Virus record (IMG/VR): IMGVR_UViG_3300010220_000093
Location: 1-64,000 of that record
DNA: 64,000 nt
Origin: an uncultured virus (IMG/VR IMGVR_UViG_3300010220_000093)
Lineage: Duplodnaviria > Heunggongvirae > Uroviricota > Caudoviricetes
Direction: 5' to 3' (one strand)
Each line of letters begins with the position of its first letter. Positions within the stretch are counted from its first letter, which is position 1. Below, piece after piece: positions 998-22,694 of this stretch. A program made the translations under genes and the position numbers. The notes beneath the pieces were generated by a model. That model was not told where the DNA came from. It did no database searches and saw nothing but the letters and a program-made list of their open reading frames with translations.

Positions 998-1033
998 TCT
1001 TGACTCCCAGTCAGAATAGAAAATATGCTGACC

Positions 1034-1066
1034 TTGACAGGTCGTATGTATAGTTCATATATGCAT
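1034..1066 (+). promoter_or_regulatory. Candidate CBASS promoter with overlapping WYL operator
   Basis: TTGACA at 1034-1039; imperfect inverted repeat ATGTATA-N7-TATGCAT at 1046-1066 over the expected -10 region. Confidence 0.55.
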
Positions 1067-1099
1067 GTTGGCACTGAGTCAACGATAAGGGTAGGGTCT

Positions 1100-1336
1100 A
1101 TGACCGACAGGTACGTTACCAGGCACCCGAGGGACTGGGCCGTGAAAGCGCCCGGGGGCGTGCGGGCGAGCAGTGTGCATTCCACGCAGCGCGACGCCGA
1201 GCAGGCCGCCAAGCAGACGGTTCGCAATCTCGGCGGCGGTGAGGTCCGTATTCATGGACGTGATGGCCGCTGGCGCAACTCCGATACCGTGCCGCCCGGC
1301 AACGATCCGAATCCGCCCCGCGACCGGAAACACTAG
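1100..1336 (+). CDS. DUF2188-family small protein
   Basis: WAVK...RAS..H.TQ..A...A...GEV.IHGRDG....D...GNDP.PPRD pattern; ATG at 1100 preferred over 1025. Confidence 0.8.
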   Translation: MTDRYVTRHPRDWAVKAPGGVRASSVHSTQRDAEQAAKQTVRNLGGGEVRIHGRDGRWRNSDTVPPGNDPNPPRDRKH

Positions 1337-1356
1337 GCGCGAGCGGGGGCACGGCG

Positions 1357-2322: not shown

Positions 2323-2326
2323 TCCC

Positions 2327-3583: not shown

Positions 3584-4251
3584 GAAACAGCGGTGCGCTG
3601 CTCACTCTGGACGATGTCAGGGCGGCGATCGCTTTCAATCAGCCGAAGCTGCGCGCCTCGGCGTCCGGTCGGACAATTGCTGTCGAAGGTGGTTTCCTCG
3701 TCCATGAGAGGGGTATTGTCGCCGCGCCAGAGGGGCCGATTGCCGAGTTTGAAATCAGGATCGAGTTGACGGATCGCTTTCCGCAACACGAGCCCAAGGT
3801 GTTCGAGATTGGCGGCAGAATCCCGCGCGAGGACAAGCGGCATATCAATGGCGGCGGCGACTGTTGCGTGACGGTTTGGGAGCACTGGCTCGCTACCGCC
3901 AGTGATCATTCCATAGCGAGTTATATCGATGGTCCGCTGCACGAGTATTTTCTCGGACAATTCTGCTTCGAACAAACCGGACGATGGCCTTTTGGCGAAC
4001 GACCACATGGATACGCCGGGCTCCAGGAAGCCTTTACCGATGCGTTGGGGATCCCGAACAAGAAGGAAAGCCTGCTCTACCATTTACGGCTCTTGGCCCA
4101 GGACTGGCCGAAGGGTCACTGGCTTTGCCCTTGCGGCAGCGGCGCGCTGCTGCGCCGTTGCCATCGCGACGACATAGCGGCCATGCACAGGAGAATCCCG
4201 CAGCCTGTTGCCCGCCAGATGCTAAAGAGAATGAAGACCGATGGCCGGTAA
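3568..4251 (+). CDS. Prokaryotic E2-like protein with C-terminal SEC-C Zn motif (short type II CBASS accessory)
   Basis: FEIRIEL...FP..EPKV...RHINGGGDCC resembles the E2 active-site region; CPCGSG..LRRCH is SEC-C-like; overlaps the CD-NTase end; TTG start uncertain. Confidence 0.75.
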   Translation: MGKILRNSGALLTLDDVRAAIAFNQPKLRASASGRTIAVEGGFLVHERGIVAAPEGPIAEFEIRIELTDRFPQHEPKVFEIGGRIPREDKRHINGGGDCCVTVWEHWLATASDHSIASYIDGPLHEYFLGQFCFEQTGRWPFGERPHGYAGLQEAFTDALGIPNKKESLLYHLRLLAQDWPKGHWLCPCGSGALLRRCHRDDIAAMHRRIPQPVARQMLKRMKTDGR

Positions 4252-4389
4252 GCTTGCCTGTCATCGGCAGTGCGAAGTTTGTCCACGACGGCGGAGTAAA
4301 GGCAGACTGGCTAGAAAGGGAAGCCAGCCCCACATAGCTGGTTCGTATGACGCTTACGGAGTTTGCCCCCCAAACTTACCCGGCGCAAG

Positions 4390-5487
4390 TCAGATGTTTG
4401 TCTGGCCTCGTTCCGATAGCAGCGCCAGCAGGGCGGGGTTGATGTAGAGGTTTTCTCGTCCGACCTTTACTTCCTCCAGCAGTCCTTCGGAGACCATCGC
4501 CTTGAGGTAGGTCGCCGCTGTCTGGCGTTTGGCGACGCCCGAGTCGACGAGATCGCTGATCCGGCAATAGGGGTTCACGAAGATCAGTTCGACCAGTTCA
4601 CGGGAATAAATCTTGGGCAGGTTCTGCCGCATGTGCTCGGCAGTCCGTTCCAACAGGTCGCGGATCGACTGAATCCGGTTTGTCGTCCATAGGGCCGTTG
4701 TCCTGACCGCCTCCAGCATGAACAGCACCCACTGTTCCCAGGCTCCCTGCTTGGTGACCTCCAGCAGATACCTGTAGTAGATCGGCTTGTTCTGAATGAT
4801 GTGGCGGCTGAGATAGAGCACCGGAATGTCCAGTAGTCCCTTGTCCACCAGATAGAGCAGGTTCAGCACCCGCCCCGTGCGGCCGTTGCCGTCGACGAAG
4901 GGATGGATGGCCTCGAACTGATAGTGCATCACCGCGAGACGGATCAGCGGATCGGTGTCCTCGGCCTCATGGATGTAGTGCTCCCAGTTGGCGAGTTTTT
5001 CGCGCAGCAGGTCCTCGCCTTCCGGCGGGGTGTAGATCACAGCCCCGGTGGCATTGTTCATCAGGGCGGTTCCGGGCGTATTTCGGATGTCGAGCTCCAC
5101 CCCCTTGATTGTCCGGCACACTTCGACGGCGATCGCCGTCGAGAGCGGGCGCTGCTTCAACATGCCGAAGCCACGGTTCAGGGCGGTACGGTAGCGCAGG
5201 GCCTCCTTGGTCGCGGGGTCGGCCTGGCCTCCAGTATCATTGGCAAAGCGGAACAGCCGGTCGGTGGTGGTGACGATGTTCTCGATCTCGGAACTCGCCT
5301 GGGCTTCGAGGAGGGGAATCGAGTTGATCAGGACCGCCTGGTTGGGGATGATCTGCCCGGAGACCCGCAGTTCCGCCAGAGCGGCCCGCGCCCCGATGCA
5401 CGCTTTGAGCACGGCCTTGGTCTCGACATCCTGCGCCGGTGGCAGGGCAGGGAGGTCGTTGAACGGACGGTCTGGACGGAAAGTCAT
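4390..5487 (-). CDS. fic: Fic-family protein adenylyltransferase with C-terminal wHTH
   Basis: HPFVDGNGRTGR motif; inhibitory-helix-like SSEIEN; start refined to ATG 5487 (MTFRPDRPFNDLP). Confidence 0.9.
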   Translation of the reverse strand: MTFRPDRPFNDLPALPPAQDVETKAVLKACIGARAALAELRVSGQIIPNQAVLINSIPLLEAQASSEIENIVTTTDRLFRFANDTGGQADPATKEALRYRTALNRGFGMLKQRPLSTAIAVEVCRTIKGVELDIRNTPGTALMNNATGAVIYTPPEGEDLLREKLANWEHYIHEAEDTDPLIRLAVMHYQFEAIHPFVDGNGRTGRVLNLLYLVDKGLLDIPVLYLSRHIIQNKPIYYRYLLEVTKQGAWEQWVLFMLEAVRTTALWTTNRIQSIRDLLERTAEHMRQNLPKIYSRELVELIFVNPYCRISDLVDSGVAKRQTAATYLKAMVSEGLLEEVKVGRENLYINPALLALLSERGQTNI

Positions 5488-5584
5488 GTCGATTACCTGC
5501 TCTCTGATCGACACGAGAATCCGACGTGTCGACGTAATCGACATATCGGGATAACGTGTCGATGCTTTCAACATCTATCGACAT
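5486..5584. repeat. Nested palindromic array of six TGTCGA/TCGACA boxes upstream of fic
   Basis: TGTCGA at 5487, 5527, 5557; TCGACA at 5508, 5538, 5578; all symmetric about 5535. Confidence 0.8.
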
Positions 5585-5754
5585 ATAATGGGTGGGGCAA
5601 GTGGCACGGCAGCGAACTCAAACGTCTTCGTGGAATGACCGAGTGAGCATATCAGGGGACGGCTGACACTACGCCGGATCGCCAGCCAGAGACTTCCCAC
5701 GGGATGGGCTGCCTACGCGATTGCTTGAAATAGAACAGTATGTTACGCTACGCT

Positions 5755-5817
5755 GCAAGCTTCGGGATTTGTTGCTCGACCAATCGCAAGTATCGTTGGT
5801 TGCGCGCCCCGCAACCA
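5755..5817 (+). repeat. att-like direct repeat copy 1, ending in tRNA-Met-like CCCCGCAACCA
   Basis: Near-identical to 22631-22694; internal inverted repeat TGGTTGCG/CGCAACCA. Confidence 0.8.
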
Positions 5818-6057
5818 GTCCTAGCTACGCTAGACTCCTCCAAACTACGATCTGCTACGGTCCGCTACGCCGCTGAATACGCAGGTTCAAATCGGGTGTG
5901 CTGCGCTGTGATCGGAAAGCCAGGCCCCGAAGGCGCTTTTGTGCTTTGATCTTTCCCGATAATCCCGCCGTCCGTGACTATCGGAAGGCAAGTAACGAGA
6001 CCTACCCACACCGGATTTCGATGGCGCAGTATGCGGAACCGGAACGGCCCGGCCCGG

Positions 6058-9000
6058 TCAGGCCGTTGAGGCCAGCGTGATCGTTCCCGTCTCGAACCAC
6101 AGAATGGCGACCTGATCCGCGCGGCTTGCCTCGGCATAGGCGGCAAGCTGGGGCCAATAGGTTGCAAAGCGGGCGTCTAGGTCCGGGACATGGCCGCTCT
6201 TATAATCCATGATCATGCGCCCGGCCGGACCTTCAGCCAGCAGATCGATGATGCCGTTCATGCCAGCGCCCTCATCATCACGCAGATGCAGCGGTAGTTC
6301 GGTGTGCAGTTGGTCAAAGCCTTGGCCCCGCAGCCAGTGACGTAGCGCCTCGGCTTGGGATGCGACATCGGCGACCTCGTCCGGCGTCAACCCGGTGGCG
6401 GCGGCGACCTCGTTCCCGTTCCCCGGCGCCATCAGAGCGGCACGCATCGCCAGATGCAGCGCTGTGCCGCGATCTGTCGCGCTGGCGAAAACGCTGCCGA
6501 CCGTCACGCGCGGCAGGCCGGTGAGGTGACGTAAGGGGCCATGGCGCGTGGCGGCCGTGGTCAGACCCGAGGGCAGTTGCCGCCATGCCCGTGCCGAGAC
6601 CGCAGGCAGCGGCGCCGGTGTGCCCCAACGCCACCAGCCCGGCCAGGCGCCGGGTACGATCTCTCCGAACCCGTCCAGAGTCGCGTCGGGACACAGGATT
6701 ACCCGCGTGGGTAGGCTTTCGTCGCCAACCTTCAGCGCGGTGGCGGTCATCGTCATCCCAGCATCGCGCCGGATCAGTGCGGCACAGGTGACTGGCGGTT
6801 CTGAGCCGTCCAGCTTGGCAAAGAGATATTCGGGCCAGGCCAGCGTCAGCCGGTCGCGGGCGCGGGTGGTGGCGACATAGATCAGCCGGTGCGCGTCCTT
6901 TTCAAAGCTGTCGCGGTCGGCCTCGATCATCGCCTCCTGCTTTTCCGGTACCGGGGTCTCGGGCAGCAGGTGCAGCCCGGCGCGGGTCAGCACCTCGGCC
7001 AGATCGTCGAAATCGGGAAAGGCCGCGCGCATGGTGCCGGGTCGGGTGCGGATGTCGCCGTCCAGCCCGGTGACGATGGTCCAGTTCCACTCGCGGCCTT
7101 TCGAGGCGTGCCAGGTGACGACCTCGACCCCATCTGCTCCGGCGCCGGGATCGGGATGCCGATCAAAGTCGCGGCCGCCGGCTTCCTGCGACAACCAGCC
7201 CCGAAACACCGGCGCCGTCTCGCCATGGAAGCCCGCGGTAACCTTCATGTCGCGATGCGCGTCCAGAAATGCCGCGACCTCGGACTCGAGCCGCAACAGG
7301 TCGGCGCGGGACTGGGCGGGGTCAGGCTGACCCTCGGCCCAGTCGCGCAGGCCGGTGGTCTGGATCACCCGGTCCATGACCAGATCCAGTGGTGCGGCGC
7401 GCGCCAGATCGCATAGGCCCGCCAGCGCAGCCAGAAGCGGATGCCGTGCCAGATCACCGGCCAGCAACATTGCCAGTGCCTGTTCCAGCGGAAGCGCGGG
7501 GGGACCCAGCGTCAGCAGCGCCAGCCCGGAATGCAGATCTTCCGGATCAAAGGCGAAACAGGCTGCGTTCAATGCCGCCTGCACCACCGAAGATTGTAGC
7601 CAGCCACCTTCGGCGATCCGCACCGGCACGCCCAATTGCCGCAATGCCCTTGCGTGCTGCGACGCCTGCGTATGCGAGCGGCAGAGCACTGCCACATCGG
7701 CCGGCCGCATCCCCCGCAACTGCCCGGAATGGCGATCGACGATCTGCGCGCCTTCGGCCAGCACATCGCGGATATGCGCTGCGACATGCTGCCAGGGCTT
7801 TGCCTTGTTACCGCGTGCCCTAGGGCCGCTTTGCAGGCGCAGTACCTCGATGGCCGGGGTCTGGCCGGTTTCGTTGCGCTGCGGGGTCAAGGCGGTATAG
7901 CCCGACCCGAACGCCTTGCGGCCAAGTGCGTTGACGAAGCCCATGATGCGCGGATCGCTGCGCCAGTTGCGGTCCAGCGCCTCGACTCGGTCCGGGTGCT
8001 GCTCGACCAGCGCCTCGGTCAGCCGGGGGTCGGCACCCTGAAAGCCCATGATCGACTGCTTGATGTCGCCAACCAGCACCACCCGCGGCGCGCGCTGCGC
8101 GAGCCGCCACAGCAGAGCGAACTGCACCGGATTGGTGTCCTGAAATTCGTCTACGATCACGCAGTCGATCTCGGCCAGCACGGCATCCAGCACCTCGGGG
8201 CGGGTGCGTAGCAAGCGCTCGGCATCGACGATCATGTCGGCAAAGTCGATCACCCCTGCCGCGCGCTTGGTTGCGGCGAATTCGGCCATGATCTCTTGCG
8301 CGCCACGGATCAGGGCCGAGGCATGGTCGCAGATATCGGCCAGCGGGCCGGGATGGCGCAGCAGGCCATCGGCTGCATCCATCACCGTCTGGGCGGCGCT
8401 ATCATAGCCTTCGGGCGTCGCGGCGCCGCGCTTGGATTGCCGCAATCCCCGCAACTGCTGCCACAACGGCCAGTCCCATGCCAACGCATCCGAGTTCAGC
8501 GCGCGGCGCAGGTTCCGAAGATCGCGGGCGAACTCCTTGTTGGCCGACGCGCTGAAATCCAGATCAGTGCACCCCGAGGGGAAGGTGCGCAGTATCGCCT
8601 GCACCGCGTCGCGCAGCTTGGCCTCGAGCGGGACGCCGTCGCGGTCCACCTTGCCGTAAAGGCTGCGGGTGGCGAGGGCCAGTTCATCGGCAAGGTCCGG
8701 CGCTGTCCCCCGGTCGCCAAGGCTGCGCAGCAGGTCGATCACGCCGAACAGCCGGGCGCGGAAGGCATCCTCGGCGGAGGTCTTGCTGTTGAAATCGAAG
8801 CGATAGCCAAAGCGCGGCAGGTCGGCCCGGACCTGATCCAGTACCCGGCAGCGGGCGATGCATTGCCGGATCATCACGTCGCGTTCCGGGTCCGACAGGT
8901 GGCGTGGGCTGACCGAACTGCCGGCGGCAAAGGCATGTTCGCCCAGCAGCCGAAGCCCCAATCCGTGAATGGTGGAGACATAGGCGCGCTCGACCGCCAT

Positions 9001-9204
9001 GGCGGCCTCGACCTTGCCGGCGGCCATCAGCGTAAAGCGGATGCGGTCGCGCAATTCCCCGGCCGCCGCCTCCGTAAAGGTTACTGCTAGGATGCGGTCG
9101 GGACGCACCAGTCCCTGTTCGACCCAATCGGCAAGATCGGTCTTGATGCGATAGGTCTTGCCCGAGCCGGCGCCGGCTGGAAGGATCTTCAGGCTCTGGT
9201 TCAT
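6058..9204 (-). CDS. AddA/UvrD-like SF1 helicase with C-terminal PD-(D/E)XK nuclease
   Basis: AGAGSGKT, TFTEAAAGE, VDEFQD, VGDIKQSI, NWRS, TWHASKGREW, YVATTRARD; nuclease GIIDLL..MDYKSG..QLAAY. Confidence 0.9.
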   Translation of the reverse strand: MNQSLKILPAGAGSGKTYRIKTDLADWVEQGLVRPDRILAVTFTEAAAGELRDRIRFTLMAAGKVEAAMAVERAYVSTIHGLGLRLLGEHAFAAGSSVSPRHLSDPERDVMIRQCIARCRVLDQVRADLPRFGYRFDFNSKTSAEDAFRARLFGVIDLLRSLGDRGTAPDLADELALATRSLYGKVDRDGVPLEAKLRDAVQAILRTFPSGCTDLDFSASANKEFARDLRNLRRALNSDALAWDWPLWQQLRGLRQSKRGAATPEGYDSAAQTVMDAADGLLRHPGPLADICDHASALIRGAQEIMAEFAATKRAAGVIDFADMIVDAERLLRTRPEVLDAVLAEIDCVIVDEFQDTNPVQFALLWRLAQRAPRVVLVGDIKQSIMGFQGADPRLTEALVEQHPDRVEALDRNWRSDPRIMGFVNALGRKAFGSGYTALTPQRNETGQTPAIEVLRLQSGPRARGNKAKPWQHVAAHIRDVLAEGAQIVDRHSGQLRGMRPADVAVLCRSHTQASQHARALRQLGVPVRIAEGGWLQSSVVQAALNAACFAFDPEDLHSGLALLTLGPPALPLEQALAMLLAGDLARHPLLAALAGLCDLARAAPLDLVMDRVIQTTGLRDWAEGQPDPAQSRADLLRLESEVAAFLDAHRDMKVTAGFHGETAPVFRGWLSQEAGGRDFDRHPDPGAGADGVEVVTWHASKGREWNWTIVTGLDGDIRTRPGTMRAAFPDFDDLAEVLTRAGLHLLPETPVPEKQEAMIEADRDSFEKDAHRLIYVATTRARDRLTLAWPEYLFAKLDGSEPPVTCAALIRRDAGMTMTATALKVGDESLPTRVILCPDATLDGFGEIVPGAWPGWWRWGTPAPLPAVSARAWRQLPSGLTTAATRHGPLRHLTGLPRVTVGSVFASATDRGTALHLAMRAALMAPGNGNEVAAATGLTPDEVADVASQAEALRHWLRGQGFDQLHTELPLHLRDDEGAGMNGIIDLLAEGPAGRMIMDYKSGHVPDLDARFATYWPQLAAYAEASRADQVAILWFETGTITLASTA

Positions 9205-11858
9205 TCCTCGTCCTCGTCAACGGCGTTGCCGGCCCCGATGGTGAAGGCAGCTATCAGTGGGCTCGCCTCCAGCGCATAGGGGGTGAGCTTGCACATCTTG
9301 CTGAAGAAACCGGCGTCTTCGGCACTGTTCAGCCGGATGTGTCCGGCGCCCACGTCGGCCAACCGTTCCTTGAGCATCTTCAGCGCATTGACGGAGATGT
9401 CGGCGGTGATCGGGGTCACGCCCTCGGACGCGATCTCAATGCCGTGGCACAGGATGCCGGAATCGTTGAGCAGGTGATAGGCGACGCCGATCTTGCCATG
9501 TGTGCCGTTAAACGGGCTGGGTGGTGCGCCTTCGGGCGGCGGAGCGGGATTGCTCAGCATGGCGCGGTAAAGCTCGGTCTGCAGGTCCCAACCGGCCTGC
9601 ATGCGTTCTTGCCGCTGGCCGGTGCGAGATTTCTTGTGATCGACGATCAGCAGGTCGCCATCCGGTAGTCGCAGTACGCTGTCGGCGAAACCGCGGAGCG
9701 CGATGCCATGCCATGTGCCGCGCAAGCCGACCTCGTTTGCGACCACCTCGGCCTGCATGGCGCGCAGTGCTGTGGCCCAGTTGCGGGCGGCCAGGATCAC
9801 TTCGCGCGTCAGGCTGTCACGCTCGACCGCCCAGAGCGAGCCCTGGGCGAAAGCAGCCTTGCGGCGGATGGCCTCGGCAATGATGGGGGAGGTGCGCTCG
9901 GCGATCTCTATATCCGATGGCAGCGGCTCGCCCGGCCGGAACAAGTGCTCCAGCACGTCATGGGCTAGCGTGCCGGCGGTCATGATATCCCATTCCTGCG
10001 GCAGCCATTCCACCGGGCCGGCACCGGCTTGATCCAGCAGCCAGGCCAACGGACTGACCAGCAGCGTTTCCAGCCGGCTGGGCGATTGAGGTGCGGCCAG
10101 CCCGTCTTCGGTCTGGCGCAGCATCAGCAGGTCGCGGCCAAGCCGCACCACCCCTTCGGTCGGCAGGGTAGGCAGAGGGGTGGCGGGACCGGCCGCCCCG
10201 CTGGCACAAAGCCGATGCACAGTGGGGTCGTTACGCAGATCGCGGATCAGACTTTCTGGCTCTGTCACCGGCCGATCGGGTGCCGCGGGATCGGCGATGC
10301 AGCGCGCGATCAGTGCCAGCGCCGGGCCGGGCATCTGCGCTGATCCGTCAAGCCCCTGACGCGGGCAGAACATCACCAGCCGCTGCAAGGGCAATGCGAT
10401 CTGGCGCCGGAACAGTGCCAGATCGCACGCCAGTCGTTCCGCGCGTCCCTCCAGCCGCAACCCGATGGTTTGGGCAATGGTCTCGCGTTCGGAATCCATG
10501 AACAGGGCGGAATTGGCGGGAGGGCGCGGATAGCGGCCGTCGCTGACTCCCAGCACCATCAGGATGTGGGCCGGGCGCCATGGCGGCTCGCCGTCGCGGA
10601 TGATGCTGACGCCCTCGACGATGCGCAGGGGGGCGGGCGGTTCGGGCGTGCGTGGGGCGGCCAGCGCGGTCAGCAAGGCCCAGTCGGGCGCTGTGGCGAC
10701 ATGCAGATGCGGTCGCAGCAGGTTCAGCCGCGCTTGCATTCCGTGGCGCAGATTGTTGTCCGGCAGCAGCGCGGCAAACTGCTCAAGCCGGCGACGCAAT
10801 TCCTCGCCATCGGCGGGGCGCGGGCGGGCGATCAGCCCGGTGATCTCGGCCAGCGGTCCCTCGGCGGCGGTGGCCCAGCGGGGTTGCGCGCGCCCGTCCA
10901 GCGCCTCGCGAGCCAGCGCCGTGCCGGTTGCATCCGGCCAGGGCATGCTGGGTAGCGCATAGAGGCTGGCCACGGCCATCGCTGGCGCCGGGGTTTGCAG
11001 CGCGGAGAGCAGATGCGTCAGCGCCTCGCCCGCCAGATCCCGTTCTGGCGTGGGGTTCGGCAGGCCCGACAGGGGTACGCCGACGCGGGAAAAGGCACGG
11101 GCGAGGTGGCGGTGGCAGGCTGGATCCTCGGGGACCAGCAGGGCAATGTCTTGCGGGCGCGTGCCTTGGGCAATCAGCTTCTGCGCCATGGCGGCGCAGG
11201 CTTCGGCCTCTTCGACAAGGTCGCGCAGGCCCCAGATGGTCAGGCTGTCGTCCTGCGGCACGGGCGGCGCAGCGCTCAGTAGATGGCGCTGGACCTGTGC
11301 CAATGTGCAGCCCGGAGGCGCGCCATTCGTCAGAGCGGCCTGCTCGGCCTGCCACGTCTGCAAGGCCGCAGTTGGGGCCAGCCCGAAGCGCGCGACTAGC
11401 GCCGCGTGCAAGGAGCGGATGGCGGCGGGGGTGTCGTCGGGCAACGGCAGGTCAAGCAGCGGCAGCGGCTCCAGCGGCACGCCCTCGCCGGCGATGGCGC
11501 GGCGGATCGTGTCCAGCCCTTCGGGCAGGGCATCATCGAGCGCGCGCCAGAGGTCGAGAAGCGCCGCAAGGTGGCGCACGGCGCGGCTGTCGGGCAGGGG
11601 CGACAGGTCAATGCCATCCGGCCGCATGTCTGGTGTGGCCAGGATCAGGCCCTTCAGCTCTGCCAAAATGCTGACTGCCGTTTCGGTTGGGGCCAGCGCG
11701 AGGCTCTCTGCCCAGGGCGCATCGATCTGCGCAGCAAGCACCGACATCGGATCGAAAGGGCGGGGGCGCGGCAACAGCAACGCCTCGCGCAAGAGGCCCG
11801 GGGTCAGCGCCCGGATTGCGCCGGTAACGGGATGCGCGGTCAGCAGATACTCGATCAT
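9201..11858 (-). CDS. AddB-like degenerate-helicase / PD-(D/E)XK nuclease
   Basis: SPSRLE, GTLAHDVLE, RGFADSV..IVDHK..QTELY; no Walker A; ATGA overlap with the AddA-like gene. Confidence 0.82.
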   Translation of the reverse strand: MIEYLLTAHPVTGAIRALTPGLLREALLLPRPRPFDPMSVLAAQIDAPWAESLALAPTETAVSILAELKGLILATPDMRPDGIDLSPLPDSRAVRHLAALLDLWRALDDALPEGLDTIRRAIAGEGVPLEPLPLLDLPLPDDTPAAIRSLHAALVARFGLAPTAALQTWQAEQAALTNGAPPGCTLAQVQRHLLSAAPPVPQDDSLTIWGLRDLVEEAEACAAMAQKLIAQGTRPQDIALLVPEDPACHRHLARAFSRVGVPLSGLPNPTPERDLAGEALTHLLSALQTPAPAMAVASLYALPSMPWPDATGTALAREALDGRAQPRWATAAEGPLAEITGLIARPRPADGEELRRRLEQFAALLPDNNLRHGMQARLNLLRPHLHVATAPDWALLTALAAPRTPEPPAPLRIVEGVSIIRDGEPPWRPAHILMVLGVSDGRYPRPPANSALFMDSERETIAQTIGLRLEGRAERLACDLALFRRQIALPLQRLVMFCPRQGLDGSAQMPGPALALIARCIADPAAPDRPVTEPESLIRDLRNDPTVHRLCASGAAGPATPLPTLPTEGVVRLGRDLLMLRQTEDGLAAPQSPSRLETLLVSPLAWLLDQAGAGPVEWLPQEWDIMTAGTLAHDVLEHLFRPGEPLPSDIEIAERTSPIIAEAIRRKAAFAQGSLWAVERDSLTREVILAARNWATALRAMQAEVVANEVGLRGTWHGIALRGFADSVLRLPDGDLLIVDHKKSRTGQRQERMQAGWDLQTELYRAMLSNPAPPPEGAPPSPFNGTHGKIGVAYHLLNDSGILCHGIEIASEGVTPITADISVNALKMLKERLADVGAGHIRLNSAEDAGFFSKMCKLTPYALEASPLIAAFTIGAGNAVDEDEE

Positions 11859-14413
11859 GCGCCGGTTTCTCCTGCAAGGCCAGGTGGCGCGAAGTTCGGC
11901 GTCGCGCGGTGGATGCGGTCGATCAGCGCCTGCTTTTCGGGCGAAGGCGCAGGACGCCCCGCAGGATGCGGCAGCACGTCGCCGTGCAGTTGCGCGCGCA
12001 GTTCCAGCCAGCGCACCTTCAGCACCTGCCAGTTGTAATCGTCATAGGTGCCGCTGACTACGACCGGATGGATGCGGATGCGCGGTGGTTCGCCAGTGGT
12101 TCCGTCGTCCTGCCAAGCGCGCAGATCCTTGAGCCAGCGGCTGTTCTTGCGGTCCACCCGGCCGATCTGCTGCTCGACGATGCCGGGGTTCCATTCGGCA
12201 TGCAGCAGGACGACGGTGCGGCAGGCCTCGTGCAAGTTCAGCCCTTCGCGCCCGACGCGGGATTGTGCCAACAGCACCATCGGCCAGCTTGCTGGGCGGT
12301 TGAAGGCAGCCTGCAATAGCCGGCGCGTCTGAGGCATGGTGCTGCCCGACATCATGCGAGCGAAATTGCCTTCTCGCCCGGAATAGTCTGCGAGATAGAC
12401 GGTCAAACGGGATTGCAATGTGTCGGTGCTTTCATCTTCATCCTCGCCGGAAAGCTCCGACAGCAGGACGCGAAACAGCGTCAGCATCTCGTCTCCGGTC
12501 CAGGGCGTGGTGGGATCGGGCCTGTGCGTGTCCAGTGCTTCGAGGAGCGCTGCGATGTCGCCGTGCAGTTCGCCCTCGCCGGGTTGCAGGTAATCTACCA
12601 GCAATGCTGCGGTGCCATCTTCTTGCGCCAAGGCCTCGATCTCGCGGTGAAGGCGCGTCAGTTCAGCTTTGCGGGTGTTGGACCATTCGCGGTAACGCTC
12701 TGCCAGTATCTTGTTGATTTCCGGGATGCCGCCTTTGGGCGCCTTCAGATCCAAGTCGCGCGCTGCTGCTTTCGTGGCCGTCACGGTGTCTGTGTCCTGG
12801 TGCACGGATCTGGCAGGCCAATGATCGTTGTCTCGCACCCTGCGCAGCATCTCGCGGGCGTCCAGAAGTCGGGTTAGCGCCTGCATCGGCTTGATGAAGC
12901 GGCCGAAGACCAGCACCTTTTCGCCCTTGGCCGCGTAATCCTCGATCAAGCGCGCTGCGGCAAGAATGGCGGGATGGCTGTAGAGATCGGCCGGCTCACG
13001 GGTGAATGCATCAAGCCAGACCGAATGCGGGCCCTGCGCCTCGTCCGGATCCGCCGGTTTTTCCGCCTCGTCATCCGTGGTCATGCCGAAGCCATAGCCC
13101 TGCGCGACCGACAACCGCGCCCGCTTGACGCGCGGATCGTCCTGCGGCAGCAGCGATAGTGCCTCGGCCGCGCAGAAGCGGCGCAACCAGTCGCGGGTGA
13201 AGCCCTCGGTTTCTGGAGAAATGGCCAGATCACAGATCTTTCGGTAGTCGCCATGACAGTCATGAAAGGCGCGGAACTCTGGATCGTGCCGCTTGTCCCG
13301 GCGCAGAACATAGGGGCGCAAGCCGTCGCGAAAGCGCGCGGCTGCGGCCTCGAAGCCCGAGGTCAGCAGGTCGTCAAGTTCCTCGATTTGCAGGCGCTGA
13401 ACTTTGTCAACATAGCCGCCGATCCAGTCGAGCAATTCGCCAAGCGCCTCTATGTCCTCGCCATCGTCCCGTCCGTTGATCCGACCCAGGGTATCGATCC
13501 ACTGCTGCGAGTCGAGTTCCACCGGCGTGGCGGTCATGCCCAGACGGAACGGATCCGGTCCCTCCCAACTGACCGGGCCGAGAATGCGAGACAGGCTTGA
13601 ATCGGTGCCGCGCGCCTTGTGTGCCTCGTCCACCACGACAAGATCGAACTGGCCGAGGCCATAGCCGATCAGGGGCAAGATCTTTTGCCTGTACTCGTCC
13701 GATGACAACCATCTCTGATCCCCGGTCAGATCGTGCGGCAGGTCGTGTTTCAGGATAGTCGCGGCGATACCGGAGGCGGCACGGCGGCTGGCATGGACAT
13801 GCCCGACCTCGCCCCGATAGAAACTGTCCCGCATGAAGTTCCGGCGCCGCCCGGCGACAAGGCGCGCCACATTCGGCAAAAGCTCGCGACGCCAGCCGCC
13901 GGCCGGTCCCTCGCCCCGGCTTGGAAAACGCATCGCGGCAAAGCTGTGCGAGATCATCAGGATCGGCTCTGCCGCCCAACCCTGGGTCGGCAATTCACGC
14001 TGCTGTCGGCGATCCTGAAGCCGTTCGCGGTGGCTGCGCTTGCGCCTCTCGCTGCCCTCGGCGTCGTTCTCCTCGACGAAACCGCTTATGAACCCCTCAT
14101 AGCTGCGTAGCGGCAGCAGGGTGTGGTCGTCGGGATTGAAGCGGCGCAACTCATCCTGCCACTGCTTGCCCAGCCCTGCGGGCAGGACGATGGCGCTGCG
14201 GCCCCCGGCGCGGCGCACGGCCTCGATTAGCGCGACGGCGATGCGGGTCTTGCCCATGCCGACCTCGTCGGCCAGCAGCGCGGCGCGCTGCCCAGCACGG
14301 ATGCGGCGGGCCAGTTCGGCGAGCGTCGCGCGTTGCCCTTCGTCGAGCAAATCCGACGCCTCGTCGGCATAGCTCTCCAGCGTTTCGGCGACTTTTGACC
14401 AATCCAACGTCAT
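11855..14413 (-). CDS. SF2 (SNF2-like) helicase/ATPase
   Basis: LLADEVGMGKT, VVDEAHK, MTATP, GREGLNL, EQQIGRVDR. Confidence 0.9.
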   Translation of the reverse strand: MTLDWSKVAETLESYADEASDLLDEGQRATLAELARRIRAGQRAALLADEVGMGKTRIAVALIEAVRRAGGRSAIVLPAGLGKQWQDELRRFNPDDHTLLPLRSYEGFISGFVEENDAEGSERRKRSHRERLQDRRQQRELPTQGWAAEPILMISHSFAAMRFPSRGEGPAGGWRRELLPNVARLVAGRRRNFMRDSFYRGEVGHVHASRRAASGIAATILKHDLPHDLTGDQRWLSSDEYRQKILPLIGYGLGQFDLVVVDEAHKARGTDSSLSRILGPVSWEGPDPFRLGMTATPVELDSQQWIDTLGRINGRDDGEDIEALGELLDWIGGYVDKVQRLQIEELDDLLTSGFEAAAARFRDGLRPYVLRRDKRHDPEFRAFHDCHGDYRKICDLAISPETEGFTRDWLRRFCAAEALSLLPQDDPRVKRARLSVAQGYGFGMTTDDEAEKPADPDEAQGPHSVWLDAFTREPADLYSHPAILAAARLIEDYAAKGEKVLVFGRFIKPMQALTRLLDAREMLRRVRDNDHWPARSVHQDTDTVTATKAAARDLDLKAPKGGIPEINKILAERYREWSNTRKAELTRLHREIEALAQEDGTAALLVDYLQPGEGELHGDIAALLEALDTHRPDPTTPWTGDEMLTLFRVLLSELSGEDEDESTDTLQSRLTVYLADYSGREGNFARMMSGSTMPQTRRLLQAAFNRPASWPMVLLAQSRVGREGLNLHEACRTVVLLHAEWNPGIVEQQIGRVDRKNSRWLKDLRAWQDDGTTGEPPRIRIHPVVVSGTYDDYNWQVLKVRWLELRAQLHGDVLPHPAGRPAPSPEKQALIDRIHRATPNFAPPGLAGETGA

Positions 14414-16188
14414 GCGGCCTCATCAATCCAAAGGGATGGGCAATCGCCTAGGTTCCATGCGGATGCCACCGCAGCCAGAGCCTCATCCAGCGGGGCGGTG
14501 TCGGCACCCTCGGGGCAGAGCCGTGGGTCCGCCAGCACCGGCAGCGGGTTGGCACCGGCGTTGCGGAAAAAACCGATCATTGCCTGTTCCTGCGCGGCGA
14601 TGGCACAAAGGTTCCGGCGCAATTCGCGGCACCAGCGTTGCCAGTCGCGTGGGTCGATGCCCTTCTGGGTTTCGCCAAGGTTGACCAGCAGTCCCATCAT
14701 GCGGCGGATGGCATAGGTCGCCGGCGGCGCACTGGGTGCATCTGCAGCCTCGGTCACGGCCCCGCCGCCTTCCGGCCCATCCTCGGGCTGATCACGGTCG
14801 GGTGGCTCCGGGAAGCTGCCAAGGCCGGCCAGCACGTCCTCGACCGTCATCTCGGGTGGCAGCGGGGTGACAAGCACGCCCTCGGCGATGACCGGAAGCC
14901 GCCAGCCGTCTTCTGCGAGTGTGACGATGACAGGGGCTGGCGCGGGCCAGGGGCAGGGGGTGATAATATGAGCACCATCGGGGCCGATCACCGGAACCGC
15001 CAGATTGCCGGGCGCCGACAGCACCCCCTGATGCCAGTTCAGCCAGGACACCGGCGGCGGCGCGTCTGGCTCCTCGGGTCGGGTGAAATCCTCGCCGGCT
15101 TGCAGCGCGGCGGGTGTCGCGGTGTCGTCAAACTGGATCGGCAACAGGCTGCGGATACCCTTTCGGCCATGCCAATCCAGACCTTCCGGTAGATCGACAA
15201 CCACGCCGGCCTCAAGATTGCCGCCGGAATTGGCGGCGGTCTCGAAGCCCGCGCGACTGAGGTTGCCCGAACCTAGATAGATCCGCCCGGCAGCCTGCTT
15301 GTCGCCATGGGCCAGCAGCACGAATTTCGCATGCAGCCGGGCGTCGTCACCATGCAGCACCGATTTCGCGCGGCGCAATGTCCAGCCAGCATCATCCAGC
15401 GCCTGTGTGCGGGTCGCCAGACCCTGACAGGATTGCGGGTTCAGGAACAGGTCGAGTCGCGCCTTCCGGGTCAGCGACTTCTTTTGCAGCAGCGCCATGC
15501 GCAGACGTTCGGGAACGCCGCCATCCTCGCCTTCGGACTCGAAATAGCCCGAGCCAAGGATCAACCGATCCGCCCTGCGTCCCCGTCCGATGCGCTCGAC
15601 CACCTGCGTGTTCAGTGGCTGCGTTCGGCTGTCGATGAAGCGTGGCTCCAGCTCTGTCTTTGGCAGGGCGGCAATGGCGGTGCGCAATCGGGCGTCGGGA
15701 CGATCGCCGTCGTAGTCCCGTTCGATCAGACTACAATCCGCGCGTTCGCGCAGCCAGTCGAACATCGCCCAGGCGGCATGCAGATCAGCCGCGTCCTGCG
15801 GGTCCGGGGCCGCAGTGTTGAGGTCAATGGACCAGAACAAGTCGATGCTGTCGGTCAGTGGATCTTGTGTCCAGTTGCCGGTGCTGATGGCCAAGCGGAT
15901 GACATATCCGCCGCCACCTTGCTGGCGAAAGCCCAGCAGCGCCACCTTGGCATGCAGAAGGTTGTAGCCATCTTTCCGCATCCACATCCATGCGAGGCCG
16001 GGAATATCAGAAACGGCGTTCACTGTCGGATGGATGAAGGCGGCCAGCGCTGGCCGCGCCAGTTCTCCGGCAAAGGTCCGCCGGATTTGGCCCAGTACCT
16101 GCGGCGTCGCGGTGAAGCCGCAAAACAGGCCGAAATCGCCAAAGCAACCCTCGGGCGGCATGAACAGGGCGTAAAGCGTCGTGTGCAT
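14410..16188 (-). CDS. Phospholipase D-superfamily protein with two HxK motifs (putative nuclease/phosphodiesterase)
   Basis: LLHAKVALL...STGNWT and LHAKFVLL...GSGNLS; start refined to ATG 16188 (TGATG overlap). Confidence 0.78.
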   Translation of the reverse strand: MHTTLYALFMPPEGCFGDFGLFCGFTATPQVLGQIRRTFAGELARPALAAFIHPTVNAVSDIPGLAWMWMRKDGYNLLHAKVALLGFRQQGGGGYVIRLAISTGNWTQDPLTDSIDLFWSIDLNTAAPDPQDAADLHAAWAMFDWLRERADCSLIERDYDGDRPDARLRTAIAALPKTELEPRFIDSRTQPLNTQVVERIGRGRRADRLILGSGYFESEGEDGGVPERLRMALLQKKSLTRKARLDLFLNPQSCQGLATRTQALDDAGWTLRRAKSVLHGDDARLHAKFVLLAHGDKQAAGRIYLGSGNLSRAGFETAANSGGNLEAGVVVDLPEGLDWHGRKGIRSLLPIQFDDTATPAALQAGEDFTRPEEPDAPPPVSWLNWHQGVLSAPGNLAVPVIGPDGAHIITPCPWPAPAPVIVTLAEDGWRLPVIAEGVLVTPLPPEMTVEDVLAGLGSFPEPPDRDQPEDGPEGGGAVTEAADAPSAPPATYAIRRMMGLLVNLGETQKGIDPRDWQRWCRELRRNLCAIAAQEQAMIGFFRNAGANPLPVLADPRLCPEGADTAPLDEALAAVASAWNLGDCPSLWIDEAA

Positions 16189-17405
16189 CAGGCTGCCTCC
16201 TGCTCGCTTGCATCGCGGCATCCGGGATTGACCTGACCCTGCAACTCGGTGGCGAGGCAATGCAGGTTGTAAAGCCGAAACAGTTGCGGTGCGAAGGCGG
16301 AGTCGTTGATCGGTTGAGGCCCCTCACCGGCATCATCGCTTGCGGCCGGATCGCCGGCTGCCGGACCGAGGGCCAGATGATCGGCGCGCCAGACGACGAC
16401 CGCGCCGTCGCGCTCGGCCAGGGCTTGCAGCAGTCGGGCAGGGGGCAGCGACAGAATCTGGCCCAGAAAGGCGCGGCTCACCGGCTCGCCAGCGGCGTCG
16501 ATCCGCGCCCCGGACGCCTCGGCGATGCGGCGCAGATTCTCGATCTCGGCTTCGGCCTTACGTTCGGCTTCCTGCGACAAAAGGCGCGCGGGCAGGCTGG
16601 CGTCGCGTCGTTGCAGTAGGATCTGCTCGATGCGGTCCAGCACCTTCAGCGCCGCATCGCGAAGGTCGATGAAGGCAGCGCCGGCGCGAAGGTCGGTCCA
16701 ATGCGCGGGGTCGATCCCCGGCAATGGGTCGGGGCTGTCAAGCTGCGCGGTGCTAGGGCCGGTGCCAAGAGTGACCAGGTTGCGGCGACGCGTGGCGCCG
16801 GGATCGTCCTCATCCAGCAGGCGCGCGCGGATCAGCTTGCGGACCTCGTCCGGCACCGGCGCAACGGGCGAAAGCCGCGCGCTGAGATCCGCCAGGCCGT
16901 GCGGCCGGCCGCCACGCGCCCAGTTTGCAAGCAAGGCGCGGCCGTCCTGCATCACCGGCAGGGCCAGCATCTGCCGACCGGCATCGTGGATGCGAAATGC
17001 ACCATAGCGGCTGCCCCGCACGAATCCCAGGGCGACCAGCGGCTGCACCATGGCCATGCGGATCGGCTGCACGACATAGGTACCGCGCCGGGTCAGGTTC
17101 TGAAAGCTCCAGTCGGTCAGGCCCTGCATCTTGCGGGCGCCGCGCACCCGGCGATCGGCCGGCCCCTCCTTGGCTTGGCGCATCATCAGCGCCTCGACCG
17201 CGTTGCCGACGGGCAACGCCGGACGCCCAAGTTCCTCGGCGATCGAAACCGCCAGCACGGACCAGATCAGCGGCATCGGAAACCACATCCCGCCCAGCCC
17301 CGGCACGGACTTGTCGTTGTAATGTCGGACCGCCGCTGCAAGGCCCAGATTTTGCTGTCGCCGCTGCGAGATCACCGTATCCGGCGCCAGTATTCCCCAA
17401 GGCAT
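16188..17405 (-). CDS. Hypothetical protein, first gene of the five-gene operon
   Basis: 405 aa ORF with a GGAG RBS, coupled to the PLD gene; no motif recognised with confidence. Confidence 0.75.
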   Translation of the reverse strand: MPWGILAPDTVISQRRQQNLGLAAAVRHYNDKSVPGLGGMWFPMPLIWSVLAVSIAEELGRPALPVGNAVEALMMRQAKEGPADRRVRGARKMQGLTDWSFQNLTRRGTYVVQPIRMAMVQPLVALGFVRGSRYGAFRIHDAGRQMLALPVMQDGRALLANWARGGRPHGLADLSARLSPVAPVPDEVRKLIRARLLDEDDPGATRRRNLVTLGTGPSTAQLDSPDPLPGIDPAHWTDLRAGAAFIDLRDAALKVLDRIEQILLQRRDASLPARLLSQEAERKAEAEIENLRRIAEASGARIDAAGEPVSRAFLGQILSLPPARLLQALAERDGAVVVWRADHLALGPAAGDPAASDDAGEGPQPINDSAFAPQLFRLYNLHCLATELQGQVNPGCRDASEQEAA

Positions 17406-17450
17406 TAACTTGCTCCTGTCCTATCGTCCCGGCTCGATATGAATGACCCT

Positions 17451-17469
17451 TACATCAAATCAGGATGAT
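17451..17469. promoter_or_regulatory. Degenerate copy of the putative WYL operator
   Basis: TACATC-AAATCAG-GATGAT, about 46 nt upstream of the operon start. Confidence 0.4.
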
Positions 17470-17583
17470 TGTTCTGGGCGACCCACAAAAAGTCCATAAG
17501 GACAAAGAATTACTTCGCTAAAATCGCGCATGTTCGGGGGGCTGATCGGCAAGATTTTCCTCTTGACGATCCACGATACCGTG

Positions 17584-19152
17584 TCAGCCACCCGGATAGA
17601 TTTCGAACAGTGCCTCGGCGGCATCTGGATCAGACATGAGACGGACATGATCCCGCGCCAGGTGGCTGATGATGTCTGCTCCCTGAACCATCGTTGTCCA
17701 AGGGTGGGCCATCACCGCATCCGGGCGCATGACGCCCAGCATGTTGCCCGCAATCGCGCCCGTGGAATCGCTGTCGCCGCTATGTGTCACGGCAATCCGA
17801 AGGCCATCGGTCAGATCCTTTCCGGCGAGACAGGCATAAAGTGCGATGGCCAGCGCCTCTTCCGCCGTCCAGCCTCCGCCTAGCTGTTCAACGGTTTCCG
17901 GCTGCCCGTCACGCGGGGCGGATAGGGCGGAGCGAATGGCGGCGGCGGTTTCCTCGCCGCCGTCCAGTCGCGCATATTCGGACGCGATCCGCCCTGCCGC
18001 CTGCTCCAACCCTTCGCCTGTCGCAACATCGGCCAGCATCTCGGCCCAAGCGGCGGCCGCAAGCTGGCCGGTGATGTGCCCATGGGTCAGGGCCGAGGTC
18101 TCGATCGCCAGTTCCCGCACCCGATCGCGCGAGGCCATCAGCGCGACCGGAGCCACCCGCATGATCGTGCCGCAGCCCTTGCTGTCGTTGCGGGCGGGAT
18201 CGCCAAAACGCCGGCTGGAACCCAGTGCCGACATGCAGGTTGTGCCCGGCGCGCATTGCGCCCAAAGCCTGCGATCCTCGATCAGCCCGATCTCGTCGGT
18301 CTCGATCCGGGGTCGCCCGCCCTGCGTCCGATACCAGCGCAGAAGCGCATGATGGACGACCGAGGGCGGGTGGCAGATCCCGCGCAACCGGCCCCGGATA
18401 TGCGCCCGGATCAGGCCCTCGGCGGTGAACAGGGTCATCTGCGTATCGTCGGTGATCGCACCGCGTTGCCCGCGATAGGGAGGCAATGCGGTGAGCCTGG
18501 CCGGAAGGCGTCTGCGGATTTCCGCAAGCGACTGGAATTCAATATCGGCCCCCAGGCTGTCGCCCATGGCACCGCCGACGAGGCAGGCTTGGAGGACCTT
18601 CGCGGGGTCGGTCAAACCGGAGGCTTGCCTTTGCAGCCATTGGTCCTGTTCGGGCGTCTCGATGGCGCCGGGTCGGACGCTCCGCACCTCGGCCATAGCT
18701 GCGTCCGCCGACCATCCGCGCTCAATCATCAGCAGGGCGGCAATCGTCCCCGCGCGACCCAGCCCGCCCCGGCAATGGATCATGACCTTGCCGCCATTTT
18801 CGAGCTGCTGGTGAATCCGCCGCGACAACCCGCGCCAATGTCCTTCGCTGTCAGCGGACGGCACATCGACATCTCGGATCTGAAAGTGAAGCCATTCCAT
18901 CCCGCGTGCCCGCAGCCCTTCGGCCAGCCCGCGGACGGCGAGCGTATCGAACTCATGGTCCTCGATCAGCGTCAGCACCATGTCGGCGCCCCAGGATTTG
19001 ACCGCATCAAGATCGAGCGCCAGATCCCGCGCCCAAGGCTTTCCGAAGACGCTGTCGCCCTGTTTTCCGGGGCAAAGCGTCAGGCCGATCTGGCCGTTGG
19101 CAATAGGCAAGCTGTCGATGCGCAGCGGATGGGTGATACTGGTGCGGGGCAA
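17584..19152 (-). CDS. Fusion of a CDKN3-like dual-specificity phosphatase and an ADP-ribosylglycohydrolase
   Basis: HCRGGLGRAG (CX5R); GDSLG, TDDTQM, SKGCGTIMR, LTHGH, GDSDSTG; TTG start with GAGGAGG RBS. Confidence 0.9.
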   Translation of the reverse strand: MPRTSITHPLRIDSLPIANGQIGLTLCPGKQGDSVFGKPWARDLALDLDAVKSWGADMVLTLIEDHEFDTLAVRGLAEGLRARGMEWLHFQIRDVDVPSADSEGHWRGLSRRIHQQLENGGKVMIHCRGGLGRAGTIAALLMIERGWSADAAMAEVRSVRPGAIETPEQDQWLQRQASGLTDPAKVLQACLVGGAMGDSLGADIEFQSLAEIRRRLPARLTALPPYRGQRGAITDDTQMTLFTAEGLIRAHIRGRLRGICHPPSVVHHALLRWYRTQGGRPRIETDEIGLIEDRRLWAQCAPGTTCMSALGSSRRFGDPARNDSKGCGTIMRVAPVALMASRDRVRELAIETSALTHGHITGQLAAAAWAEMLADVATGEGLEQAAGRIASEYARLDGGEETAAAIRSALSAPRDGQPETVEQLGGGWTAEEALAIALYACLAGKDLTDGLRIAVTHSGDSDSTGAIAGNMLGVMRPDAVMAHPWTTMVQGADIISHLARDHVRLMSDPDAAEALFEIYPGG

Positions 19153-20221: not shown

Positions 20222-20270
20222 GGGTTCTCCGGACAATATCATGCCAGCTTCGCGGCGCGGCGATTTCGCG

Positions 20271-22332: not shown

Positions 22333-22630
22333 CCCTATTCGAGATTCAAGTTGCGTAGGGGTGTTTGTCGATCATCTGCTGCCTAAGCGCCACGTGGAGT
22401 TGACCTATAGGTGGCATCGACAGGTCAGGATCATATGTCTATTTTCTTTCGATCCATCGACACATTGTTCGTAAGGTCAGTGGCTCGTCAACAAACGGAT
22501 CGACATTCGGAAAGAGACCAACAGCGCATATCGGGAGGCGGTTCGCAGCGAGCCTGATCGTCTGGAAATCTGCTATGAGACGGGCCGGTAACGCGATTGC
22601 TCAAAGTATAACAGTGAGTTATACTAAGCA

Positions 22631-22694
22631 GCAAGCTTCGGGATCTGACGCTCGACCAATCGCAAGTATCGTTGGTTGCGCGCCCCCGCAACCA
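22631..22694 (+). repeat. att-like direct repeat copy 2, ending in tRNA-Met-like GCCCCCGCAACCA
   Basis: Differs from 5755-5817 by 3 substitutions and a 1-nt indel. Confidence 0.8.

Follow-up and report, generated by a model that had tools for sequence, protein, structure and literature searches.

Restriction of invading DNA followed by its degradation by RecBCD or AddAB is a textbook two-step process, in which the second step normally falls to a host repair enzyme that phages disarm. These host enzymes are primarily repair enzymes, and they are commonly inhibited by phages (lambda Gam, T7 gp5.9) and attenuated by Chi sites. Two catalogued groups of genes that combine a phospholipase D (PLD) type nuclease with an SNF2-type ATPase are of direct relevance to the locus described here. 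The first, Azaca, consists in the accessible part of its description of three genes without an AddAB-like pair, and the ZacA, ZacB and ZacC proteins together cleave T4 DNA in vitro, which requires the nuclease site and the Walker A motif of ZacC (bioRxiv 10.1101/2025.07.10.664194). The second, PDC-M27, is a phage-defence candidate in PADLOC which, in the accessible text of the preprint, is an embedding-based prediction (Payne et al., bioRxiv 10.1101/2024.01.29.577857). We analysed positions 1-64,000 (64,000 nt, hereafter the window) of a 74,967-base record of an uncultured Caudoviricetes virus (IMG/VR IMGVR_UViG_3300010220_000093) and identified a block of five genes, g1 to g5, which consists of two separable modules: a trio resembling Azaca (g1-g2-g3) and an AddAB-like pair (g4-g5). 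We interpret the block as one translationally coupled operon with two DNA-targeting modules that most likely act sequentially in anti-phage or anti-plasmid defence, a reading to which we assign a probability of about 0.5. Such trios stand next to an AddAB-like pair in many bacteria, an association that appears to be undescribed. In the literature that was searched, an Azaca-type trio is nowhere reported together with such a pair, no PADLOC v2 model matches g1 or g4, and none of the five proteins is confidently named by this tool, in line with the first-pass annotation of the window, which was made from the sequence alone and knew of no described system with this five-gene form.

The five genes, in the order in which they are transcribed, are listed below (aa, amino acids).

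g1: 16188-17405, minus strand, 405 aa, family without annotation, first gene of the trio
g2: 14410-16188, minus strand, 592 aa counted from the 16188 ATG, ZacB-like nuclease of the PLD family carrying two HKD motifs
g3: 11855-14413, minus strand, 852 aa, SNF2-type superfamily 2 (SF2) ATPase/helicase, similar to ZacC and PDC-M27C
g4: 9201-11858, minus strand, 885 aa, AddB-like, with a C-terminal RecB-type PD-(D/E)XK nuclease
g5: 6058-9204, minus strand, 1048 aa, AddA/RecB-like superfamily 1 (SF1) helicase of the UvrD type with a C-terminal RecB nuclease

The five overlapping genes and the junctions (one TGATG, three ATGA) of the first-pass annotation were recovered unchanged. Neighbouring genes overlap by 1 to 4 nt at 4/4 junctions: at g1/g2 (CTGATGC at 16188) a single base is common to TGA and ATG, and the other three junctions, g2/g3 (14410), g3/g4 (11855) and g4/g5 (9201), are ATGA overlaps. 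The open reading frame of g2 is open further upstream, to a TTG at 16260 (14410-16260, 616 aa). The ATG at 16188 is the most likely start because the TGA/ATG overlap with g1 is located there, and alignments with relatives of g2 begin near the residue encoded by this ATG. The GC content at third codon positions of the five frames (0.73-0.80) is typical for real genes of the window. The combination of two helicases and three nuclease domains that had been read from the sequence also held: the HxK pair of g2, the SF2 motifs of g3 and the PD-(D/E)XK motifs of both g4 and g5 are intact.

The resemblance of the trio to Azaca, which the earlier reading had put forward, was found for two of the three genes, g2 (ZacB, 4e-10) and g3 (ZacC, 6e-16), and homology of g1 to ZacA was not detectable. 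g2 has no match in Pfam, and its match to the PADLOC ZacB model (4.2e-10) covers residues 100-354. A genuine ZacB, from the canonical Azaca locus L076 (ZacA 3e-114, ZacB 4e-160, ZacC E=0), scores 4e-160 on the same model, so that the relationship of g2 is distant. The HxK...GSxN motifs of g2, at residues 103 and 310 in the numbering from the TTG start, align with those of ZacB and PDC-M27B. The PDC-M27B model itself was not matched at E<=10, only those of ZacB and DrmC; the M27B protein of locus L089, used as a control, gave 2.7e-241. g3 carries the Pfam domains ResIII, SNF2-rel_dom and Helicase_C with intact motifs GMGKT52 (Walker A), DEAH262 and QQIGRVDR748 (motif VI). Its PADLOC matches are PDC-M27C (2.8e-22, the best), DrmD (1e-17) and ZacC (6e-16). 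The best stretch on PDC-M27C is residues 690-764 only, whereas the M27C control from L089 matches over its full length with E=0, and the ZacC match, exceeded by those to PDC-M27C and DrmD, is confined to the motor motifs. In pairwise BLAST searches the g1-type, Azaca and PDC-M27 trios are about equidistant, and only helicase motifs were found against Azaca. These comparisons place g1-g2-g3 in a putative third, uncatalogued clade beside Azaca and PDC-M27, with homology confined to the PLD and helicase genes.

g1 has no match in Pfam, NCBIfam or PADLOC, in the last not even at E<=10. Word-indexed searches returned 101 homologues, alphaproteobacterial wherever named, and a profile search returned 476 representative clusters at E<=1e-3, indicating a sizeable unannotated family. 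The candidate identity of g1 as a ZacA homologue was rejected at the sequence level: DUF6361 was matched by 0/33 and 0/104 members of the family (positive control, ZacA of L076, 2.9e-200), hhalign gave probabilities of 0.7% and 0.2% against ZacA, and BLAST found no match between the two. ESM look-alikes of g1 include one DUF6361 cluster at 0.84, which we take as a lead only. The AlphaFold2 model of g1 is mainly helical (predicted local distance difference test 91.7, predicted TM-score 0.88). A Foldseek search with this model against PDB found nothing at E<=0.001 (best E 0.52), and VIA-align gave local matches only (Z 5-6, under the threshold that the tool itself treats as meaningful), for the most part to DNA-binding domains of the winged-helix type and spanning residues ~43-170 and 241-360. 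We regard g1 as a positional analogue of ZacA that falls outside the ZacA family and possibly contains nucleic-acid-binding modules.

The pair g4-g5 resembles AddAB in its overall organisation. In g4, Pfam recognises PDDEXK_1 (9.6e-18, residues 592-777) with the nuclease residues D726, D740-H-K742 and Q760xxxY; residues 1-590 have no Pfam match and no Walker A motif was found in the protein. A profile of the g4 family has B. subtilis AddB (3u44_B) as its top PDB match, over residues 439-548 and with a weak E-value of 0.001, and the ESM look-alikes of g4 include two clusters with ADDB_N. Iron-sulfur cluster cysteines are a feature of AddB of B. subtilis; an alignment of 21 g4-family sequences contains no invariant or nearly invariant cysteine column. 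g5 matches UvrD-helicase (6e-44), UvrD_C and, at its C-terminus, PDDEXK_1, and its motifs GSGKT, DEFQD, VATTRA, DYK and QLAAY are intact. PDB matches of g5 are UvrD, RecB, AdnB-type proteins and AddA, but it lies far under the recB and addA equivalog cut-offs, with 124.9 against a cut-off of 860.75 on TIGR02784 (addA_alphas) and 130.7 against 707.65 on TIGR02785. In each of the four genomes checked (those of L002, L008, L003 and L028), a separate AddA passes the TIGR02784 cut-off with 1138-1315 bits, and the g5 homologues in the same genomes score ~60-75 bits. Because these hosts encode a separate true AddA, g4-g5 is additional to the housekeeping enzyme. The genome of P. lutimaris contains, besides the g5 homologue of L002, a second g5-like frame of 1083 aa (G001 contig C42:3131-6187).

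Linkage of the two modules was analysed from both sides. A scan of genomes centred on g1 comprised 32 loci, in which neighbours were identified by tblastn with the five window proteins. g5 lies beside g1 in 28/32 loci and all five genes were detected in 23/32, so the coupling of an AddAB-like pair to the trio that had been proposed for the window extends to other genomes. Four loci lack g5: in L027 and L032 g1 is at the contig end, and in L029 and L031 the trio has several kb of flanking sequence and no pair. The gene order of the window was seen in a single g1-centred locus, L002 (Paracoccus lutimaris, 84-89% identity); in the other 27 loci with g5, g4-g5 is upstream of g1. L028 and L030 contain an insert of 5.5-5.7 kb and L033 has a gap of 1 kb. 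Overall, three arrangements were seen (trio-first, pair-first and divergent), and the junction between the modules is ATGA in L002 as well as in L034. The window order is also present on plasmid pBEN of Paracoccus versutus (L120), followed by convergent WYL and AAA genes. Plasmids of Leisingera and Fuscovulum carry AAA-WYL-ARH-(HEPN)-g4-g5-g1-g2-g3; the genes of these clusters overlap or nearly abut (for the Leisingera plasmid by PGAP coordinates) and are annotated as hypothetical. On the Fuscovulum blasticum plasmid a HEPN-domain gene (L122:8035-8823) lies between the ARH gene and g4. The block was found nearly unchanged in activated-sludge and wastewater metagenomes of 8 studies, and scans of viral contigs with the g4 and g1 profiles gave no relatives.

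In 10 genome loci from many genera, the BREX (bacteriophage exclusion) genes PglZ-BrxL lie directly upstream of the pair-first cassette. PglZ and BrxL are 92-100% identical among these loci, so they represent one spreading element, and the BREX plus five-gene element as a whole is 92-100% identical in several genera, among them Kaistia, Brucella/Ochrobactrum, Rhizobium, Sphingomonas and Rhodopseudomonas, which implies that it spread horizontally in recent times. Membership of the block in BREX was considered and rejected, as the window contains no BREX, and the cassette is not mentioned in the accessible part of a BREX survey (PMC12839542). In BrxL of L008:20-4127 and of nine similar loci a C-terminal PLD-like MIT_C domain replaces the Lon protease domain.

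For the g4 family, a word-indexed search gave 37 homologues, and 176 stretches that encode a member were located in metagenome contigs. A metagenome scan centred on g4, and therefore unbiased with respect to the trio, used the best 80 of these 176 relatives, of which 52 are informative for the neighbourhood. g5 follows g4 in 76/80 loci, and the remaining 4 have <=231 nt beyond g4. A PLD plus SNF2 trio lies beside the pair in 35/52 informative loci and belongs to three families: 22 are of the g1 type, 11 are canonical Azaca and 2 are PDC-M27, whose B and C genes in L089 and L094 are convergent to the pair. When only loci with >=6 kb on both sides are considered, a trio is present in 18/23. Clustering of g5 at 90% identity yielded 30 informative clusters, 20 of which include a trio and 5 of which are mixed. 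On a FastTree phylogeny of 77 g5 proteins, which has local support values only and some long branches, the Azaca label must change 8 or more times and the g1-type label 10 or more times, and the type of trio differs between sister g5 proteins (L051 Azaca and L055 g1-type; L083 Azaca and L089 PDC-M27). Genes following g5 in other loci include GmrSD, PDC-S26, McrB-like ATPase and TIR genes. In L089 and L094, a gene of 377 aa without Pfam or PADLOC match is located between g5 and the convergent PDC-M27 genes (L089:7356-8489, L094:15306-16436).

A different occupant of the same position is a gene for a calcineurin-like metallophosphoesterase of 337 aa, found directly after g5 in place of the trio in 11 metagenome loci; the loci with this gene are L039-L043, L046, L047, L057, L062, L067, L092 and L111 (e.g. 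L041:13386-14399). It is mostly followed by convergent WYL and AAA genes and accounts for 7/17 informative loci without a trio. These loci may represent a distinct three-gene variant that combines the AddAB-like pair with a phosphoesterase.

On plasmids, g4 was found in 11 records, 7 of them typed as conjugative. The 10 records with full-length g4 comprise 5 with a g1-type trio, 1 with an M27 remnant, 3 with no trio and 1 left uninspected. On a Komagataeibacter plasmid a PDC-M27C remnant is cut by IS21 just before g4. ZacA matches 50 of 72,556 plasmid records. The five genes had initially been taken to form one unit. This part of the first-pass annotation has to be abandoned, as each module is found alone and the AAA, WYL and ARH genes travel along with the modules; an indivisible five-gene system was rejected. 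The AddAB-like pair is a so far unnamed module of defence islands, and its recurrent fusion with the trio is the point of interest.

In the sequential reading that we prefer, g1 would provide module A (g1-g2-g3) with a helical adaptor that probably binds nucleic acid, next to the two-HKD PLD nuclease g2 and the SNF2-type ATPase g3. Module B (g4-g5) would be a dedicated AddAB-type heterodimer, in which g5 supplies the motor and a RecB nuclease, and g4, an AddB-like partner without motor function, contributes another RecB nuclease. The trio would recognise foreign DNA and make the first ATP-dependent cuts, after which the private AddAB-like enzyme would load on the new ends and processively degrade both strands. 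Destruction of the DNA would in this way be independent of the host AddAB or RecBCD, which is inhibited by phages and attenuated by Chi, and the AAA-WYL pair encoded upstream of the block probably sets expression. The context is rich in defence genes (CBASS, SoFic and AbiE in the window; BREX PglZ-BrxL upstream in 10 genome loci, as described above). For Druantia III and Zorya II, synergy via shared DNA intermediates is reported in the accessible part of a 2026 preprint (PMC13192584). A wider version of the proposal is that the AddAB-like pair is a second-stage shredder recruited repeatedly by Azaca, PDC-M27 and g1-type trios. It would then be part of a general cut-then-resect architecture that escapes phage inhibitors and Chi and whose single-stranded DNA could feed the adjacent WYL regulator; we regard this version as tentative and rather doubtful.

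Several observations weigh against sequential action of the two modules. The trio occurs without the pair on a plasmid of Pantoea At-9b (AAA-WYL-g1-g2-g3, 30-35% identity) and in L031, and the pair occurs without a trio in 17/52 informative metagenome loci. Plasmids of N. humi, Agrobacterium and Ochrobactrum carry g4-g5 with no trio within 9-10 kb. g4 is present in 0/40 of the ZacA-bearing plasmid records that were listed (40 of 50), indicating that most plasmid Azaca stands alone. Types of trio have been exchanged between g5 proteins that are >=90% identical, which fits a plain exchange of cassettes at a hotspot. Free exchange of the trio beside near-identical g4-g5 speaks against the modules being joined in a specific physical complex, so any cooperation would proceed via DNA intermediates and not via a fixed protein complex. 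A large number of the loci are almost identical copies of a single mobile element, the BREX-linked type, so raw locus counts overstate the number of independent events. The AddB label of the N-terminal 590 residues of g4 derives from one weak profile match and ESM look-alikes. A weak hint of expression comes from two metatranscriptome libraries, in which contigs span the g4/g5 and g3/g4 junctions; carried-over DNA may be the source of such RNA-library contigs, and they are no proof of a single transcript. Several metatranscriptome bins across 13578-17616 (the g1-g2 part) have zero or near-zero cover, to which we attach no weight.

An alternative is that the block consists of two independent defence systems that do not cooperate and have only an operon, a regulator or a slot for cassettes in common, with the pair perhaps under its own AAA-WYL control. 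This is the strongest competing explanation, and we consider it a realistic possibility that falls short of being probable. It accounts for the occurrence of trio and pair without each other, for the presence of AAA-WYL genes beside both trio-only and pair-only loci, for the unrelated cargo in the slot after g5 (metallophosphoesterase, GmrSD, PDC-S26, McrB-like, TIR) and for the uncoupling of trio type from g5 phylogeny. It does not readily account for translational coupling that crosses the module boundary in both gene orders, nor for the three PLD plus SNF2 families in the neighbouring slot: each of these is generally rare, and an occupancy of 35/52 informative loci given such rarity (ZacA in 50/72,556 plasmid records) is far above the level of a neutral hotspot.

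An unlikely alternative is that g4-g5 serves recombination, repair or maintenance of mobile elements, for instance by processing ends when the element itself replicates or recombines, or competition with rival plasmids, and that the trio alone is defensive. Such a role would suit the established function of AddAB and RecBCD as primarily repair enzymes and the location of g4 homologues on plasmids (11 records, 7 conjugative) and beside prophage. Against it, the hosts already encode a housekeeping AddA, neighbouring genes are overwhelmingly those of defence (BREX, Azaca, PDC-M27, GmrSD, TIR, WYL regulators), and replication or conjugation genes are not consistently adjacent. That the five proteins form one obligate multi-subunit machine, non-functional in parts, is very improbable: the tight overlaps of all five genes and their joint detection in 23/32 g1-centred loci would agree with it, but the modules occur apart, the trio family is exchanged beside near-identical g4-g5, and canonical ZacABC alone cleaves DNA in vitro according to the accessible part of its description (bioRxiv 10.1101/2025.07.10.664194).

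Three further genes precede g1 on the same strand, and the eight genes together are enclosed by direct repeats, as listed here.

AAA2: 20271-22274, minus strand, 667 aa, two AAA+ ATPase domains, N-terminal winged-helix match
WYL-WCX regulator-like gene (BrxR/CapW type): 19247-20281, minus strand, Pfam WYL and WCX, PADLOC WYL
ARH: 17584-19152, minus strand, ADP-ribosylglycohydrolase fused to a dual-specificity-phosphatase-like domain, conserved neighbour upstream
Direct repeat, left copy: 5703-5810, 108 nt, 83% identical to the right copy
Direct repeat, right copy: 22579-22686, 108 nt

In Pfam, ARH matches ADP_ribosyl_GH (3e-63), PTP-SAK and DSPc, and AAA2 matches AAA in two stretches (7e-39) and WHD; the PADLOC match of AAA2 is IetA-like (6e-28). 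The WYL-WCX gene overlaps the AAA2 gene by 11 nt. AAA-WYL-ARH genes that are 64-82% identical to those of the window lie upstream in five Rhodobacterales loci. ARH taken by itself is 64-81% identical in loci of the Rhodobacterales type, where its position is unchanged. A WYL gene lies near g4-g5 in 34/80 metagenome loci and is also found on the pair-only N. humi and Agrobacterium plasmids, and the AAA-WYL pair accompanies both trio-only (Pantoea) and pair-only (N. humi) loci. The AAA-WYL-ARH genes may form a shared regulatory or counter-counter-defence module. The nearest relatives of g1-g5 in the window are of the type found in P. versutus and in P. lutimaris (84-90%). The AAA-WYL-ARH genes of the window are nearest to those of pair-first Rhodobacterales loci (73-83%), and AAA and WYL are 41-44% identical to those of P. 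versutus. With different nearest relatives for the two parts, the block is therefore a mosaic.

The 108-nt repeats enclose eight co-directional genes, in the order AAA2, WYL-WCX, ARH and g1-g5. Their core of 30 nt is exact and occurs only twice in the window, where 0 copies are expected by chance, and metagenome contigs end at the left copy (5703-5810). The earlier description of a repeat-bounded island of five genes between CBASS and AbiE was therefore right about the repeats, but it has to be corrected in the number of enclosed genes, which is eight, and in the neighbourhood, as SoFic lies between the block and CBASS. An origin of the repeats from a tRNA-type attachment (att) site was rejected: neither the window nor the tail of the record contains a tRNA that ARAGORN recognises, and the 14-nt matches are at about chance level. 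These matches concern a 3' tRNA-like fragment at the record end (L119:10900-10957) with a CTCATAA loop, a GCAGGTTCAAATCCTGC arm and CCCCGCAACCA, which was not called by ARAGORN. Exact 14-nt words of this fragment equal window positions 5880-5893 and 22682-22695, in or beside both repeats, and they could mark tandem islands at a single tRNA att site.

The region from 1 to 25 kb is a defence island that contains, in order, a WYL gene, DUF2188/PDC-S16, CBASS (cyclic-oligonucleotide-based anti-phage signalling system), SoFic, the eight-gene block and AbiEii/AbiEi. The parts of the island that flank the block span 1-5574 and 22832-24410. The CBASS operon encodes a patatin effector, a cyclase and an E2-only Cap2-like protein and lies further to the left than SoFic, the direct left neighbour of the block; AbiE lies on the right. 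A siphovirus-type structural and lysis module occupies 26-47 kb, and an integrase and a replication gene are located at 66-70 kb of the record. No Rfam RNA family was found in positions 1-27000, and a scan for promoters and terminators gave no signal above that of shuffled sequences.

If the sequential reading is correct, a defence operon with its own AddAB-type enzyme would represent an immune system that privatises a housekeeping activity, and it would make synergy between defence modules directly accessible to genetics. The analysis also delimits two unannotated families (g1 and g4) and extends the Azaca/PDC-M27 group to a putative third clade. A practical value lies in annotation tools, given that PADLOC v2 names none of the five proteins with confidence.

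Compared with described systems, the trio has most in common with Azaca: it has the same order of three genes, a first gene of ~400 aa, a two-HKD PLD protein of ~600 aa and an SF2 helicase, g2 and g3 match ZacB and ZacC with aligned HKD motifs, and canonical Azaca fills the same slot after g4-g5 in 11 loci. It differs from Azaca in that g1 has no detectable similarity to ZacA or DUF6361 and in that g3 falls ~190 aa short of ZacC in length and has a better score on PDC-M27C than on the ZacC model. Like PDC-M27, whose components include a PLD protein (M27B) and an SNF2 helicase (M27C), the trio combines a PLD nuclease with an SNF2-type ATPase. M27C is the best PADLOC match of g3, with its best stretch limited to residues 690-764, whereas g2 does not match the M27B model. 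The combination of a PLD nuclease with an SNF2-type ATPase is also found in DISARM (defence island system associated with restriction-modification) and in PLD-helicase fusions (NF042964; Type-2 BR, in the accessible part of PMC12839542). g3 matches DrmD (1e-17) and g2 weakly matches DrmC (0.05). Unlike in DISARM, no methyltransferase or DUF1998 match was found among the scanned genes in or next to the block, and the match of g3 to the DrmA helicase is weak (4e-13) and one of those to 33 SF2-helicase families; unlike in the fusions, PLD and helicase are separate genes in the window. The pair, finally, shares with AddAB, RecBCD and AdnAB the order of an addB-like gene followed by an addA-like gene. 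It shares with AddAB an SF1 motor with RecB nuclease (g5) alongside a second RecB-nuclease subunit (g4), in which the nuclease is C-terminal behind a large N-terminal region and whose family has AddB as top, though weak, PDB match. It departs from AddAB in the low equivalog scores of g5, in the lack of a Walker A motif and a conserved cysteine cluster in g4, and in being encoded on defence islands and mobile elements as an extra to the housekeeping AddA of the host.

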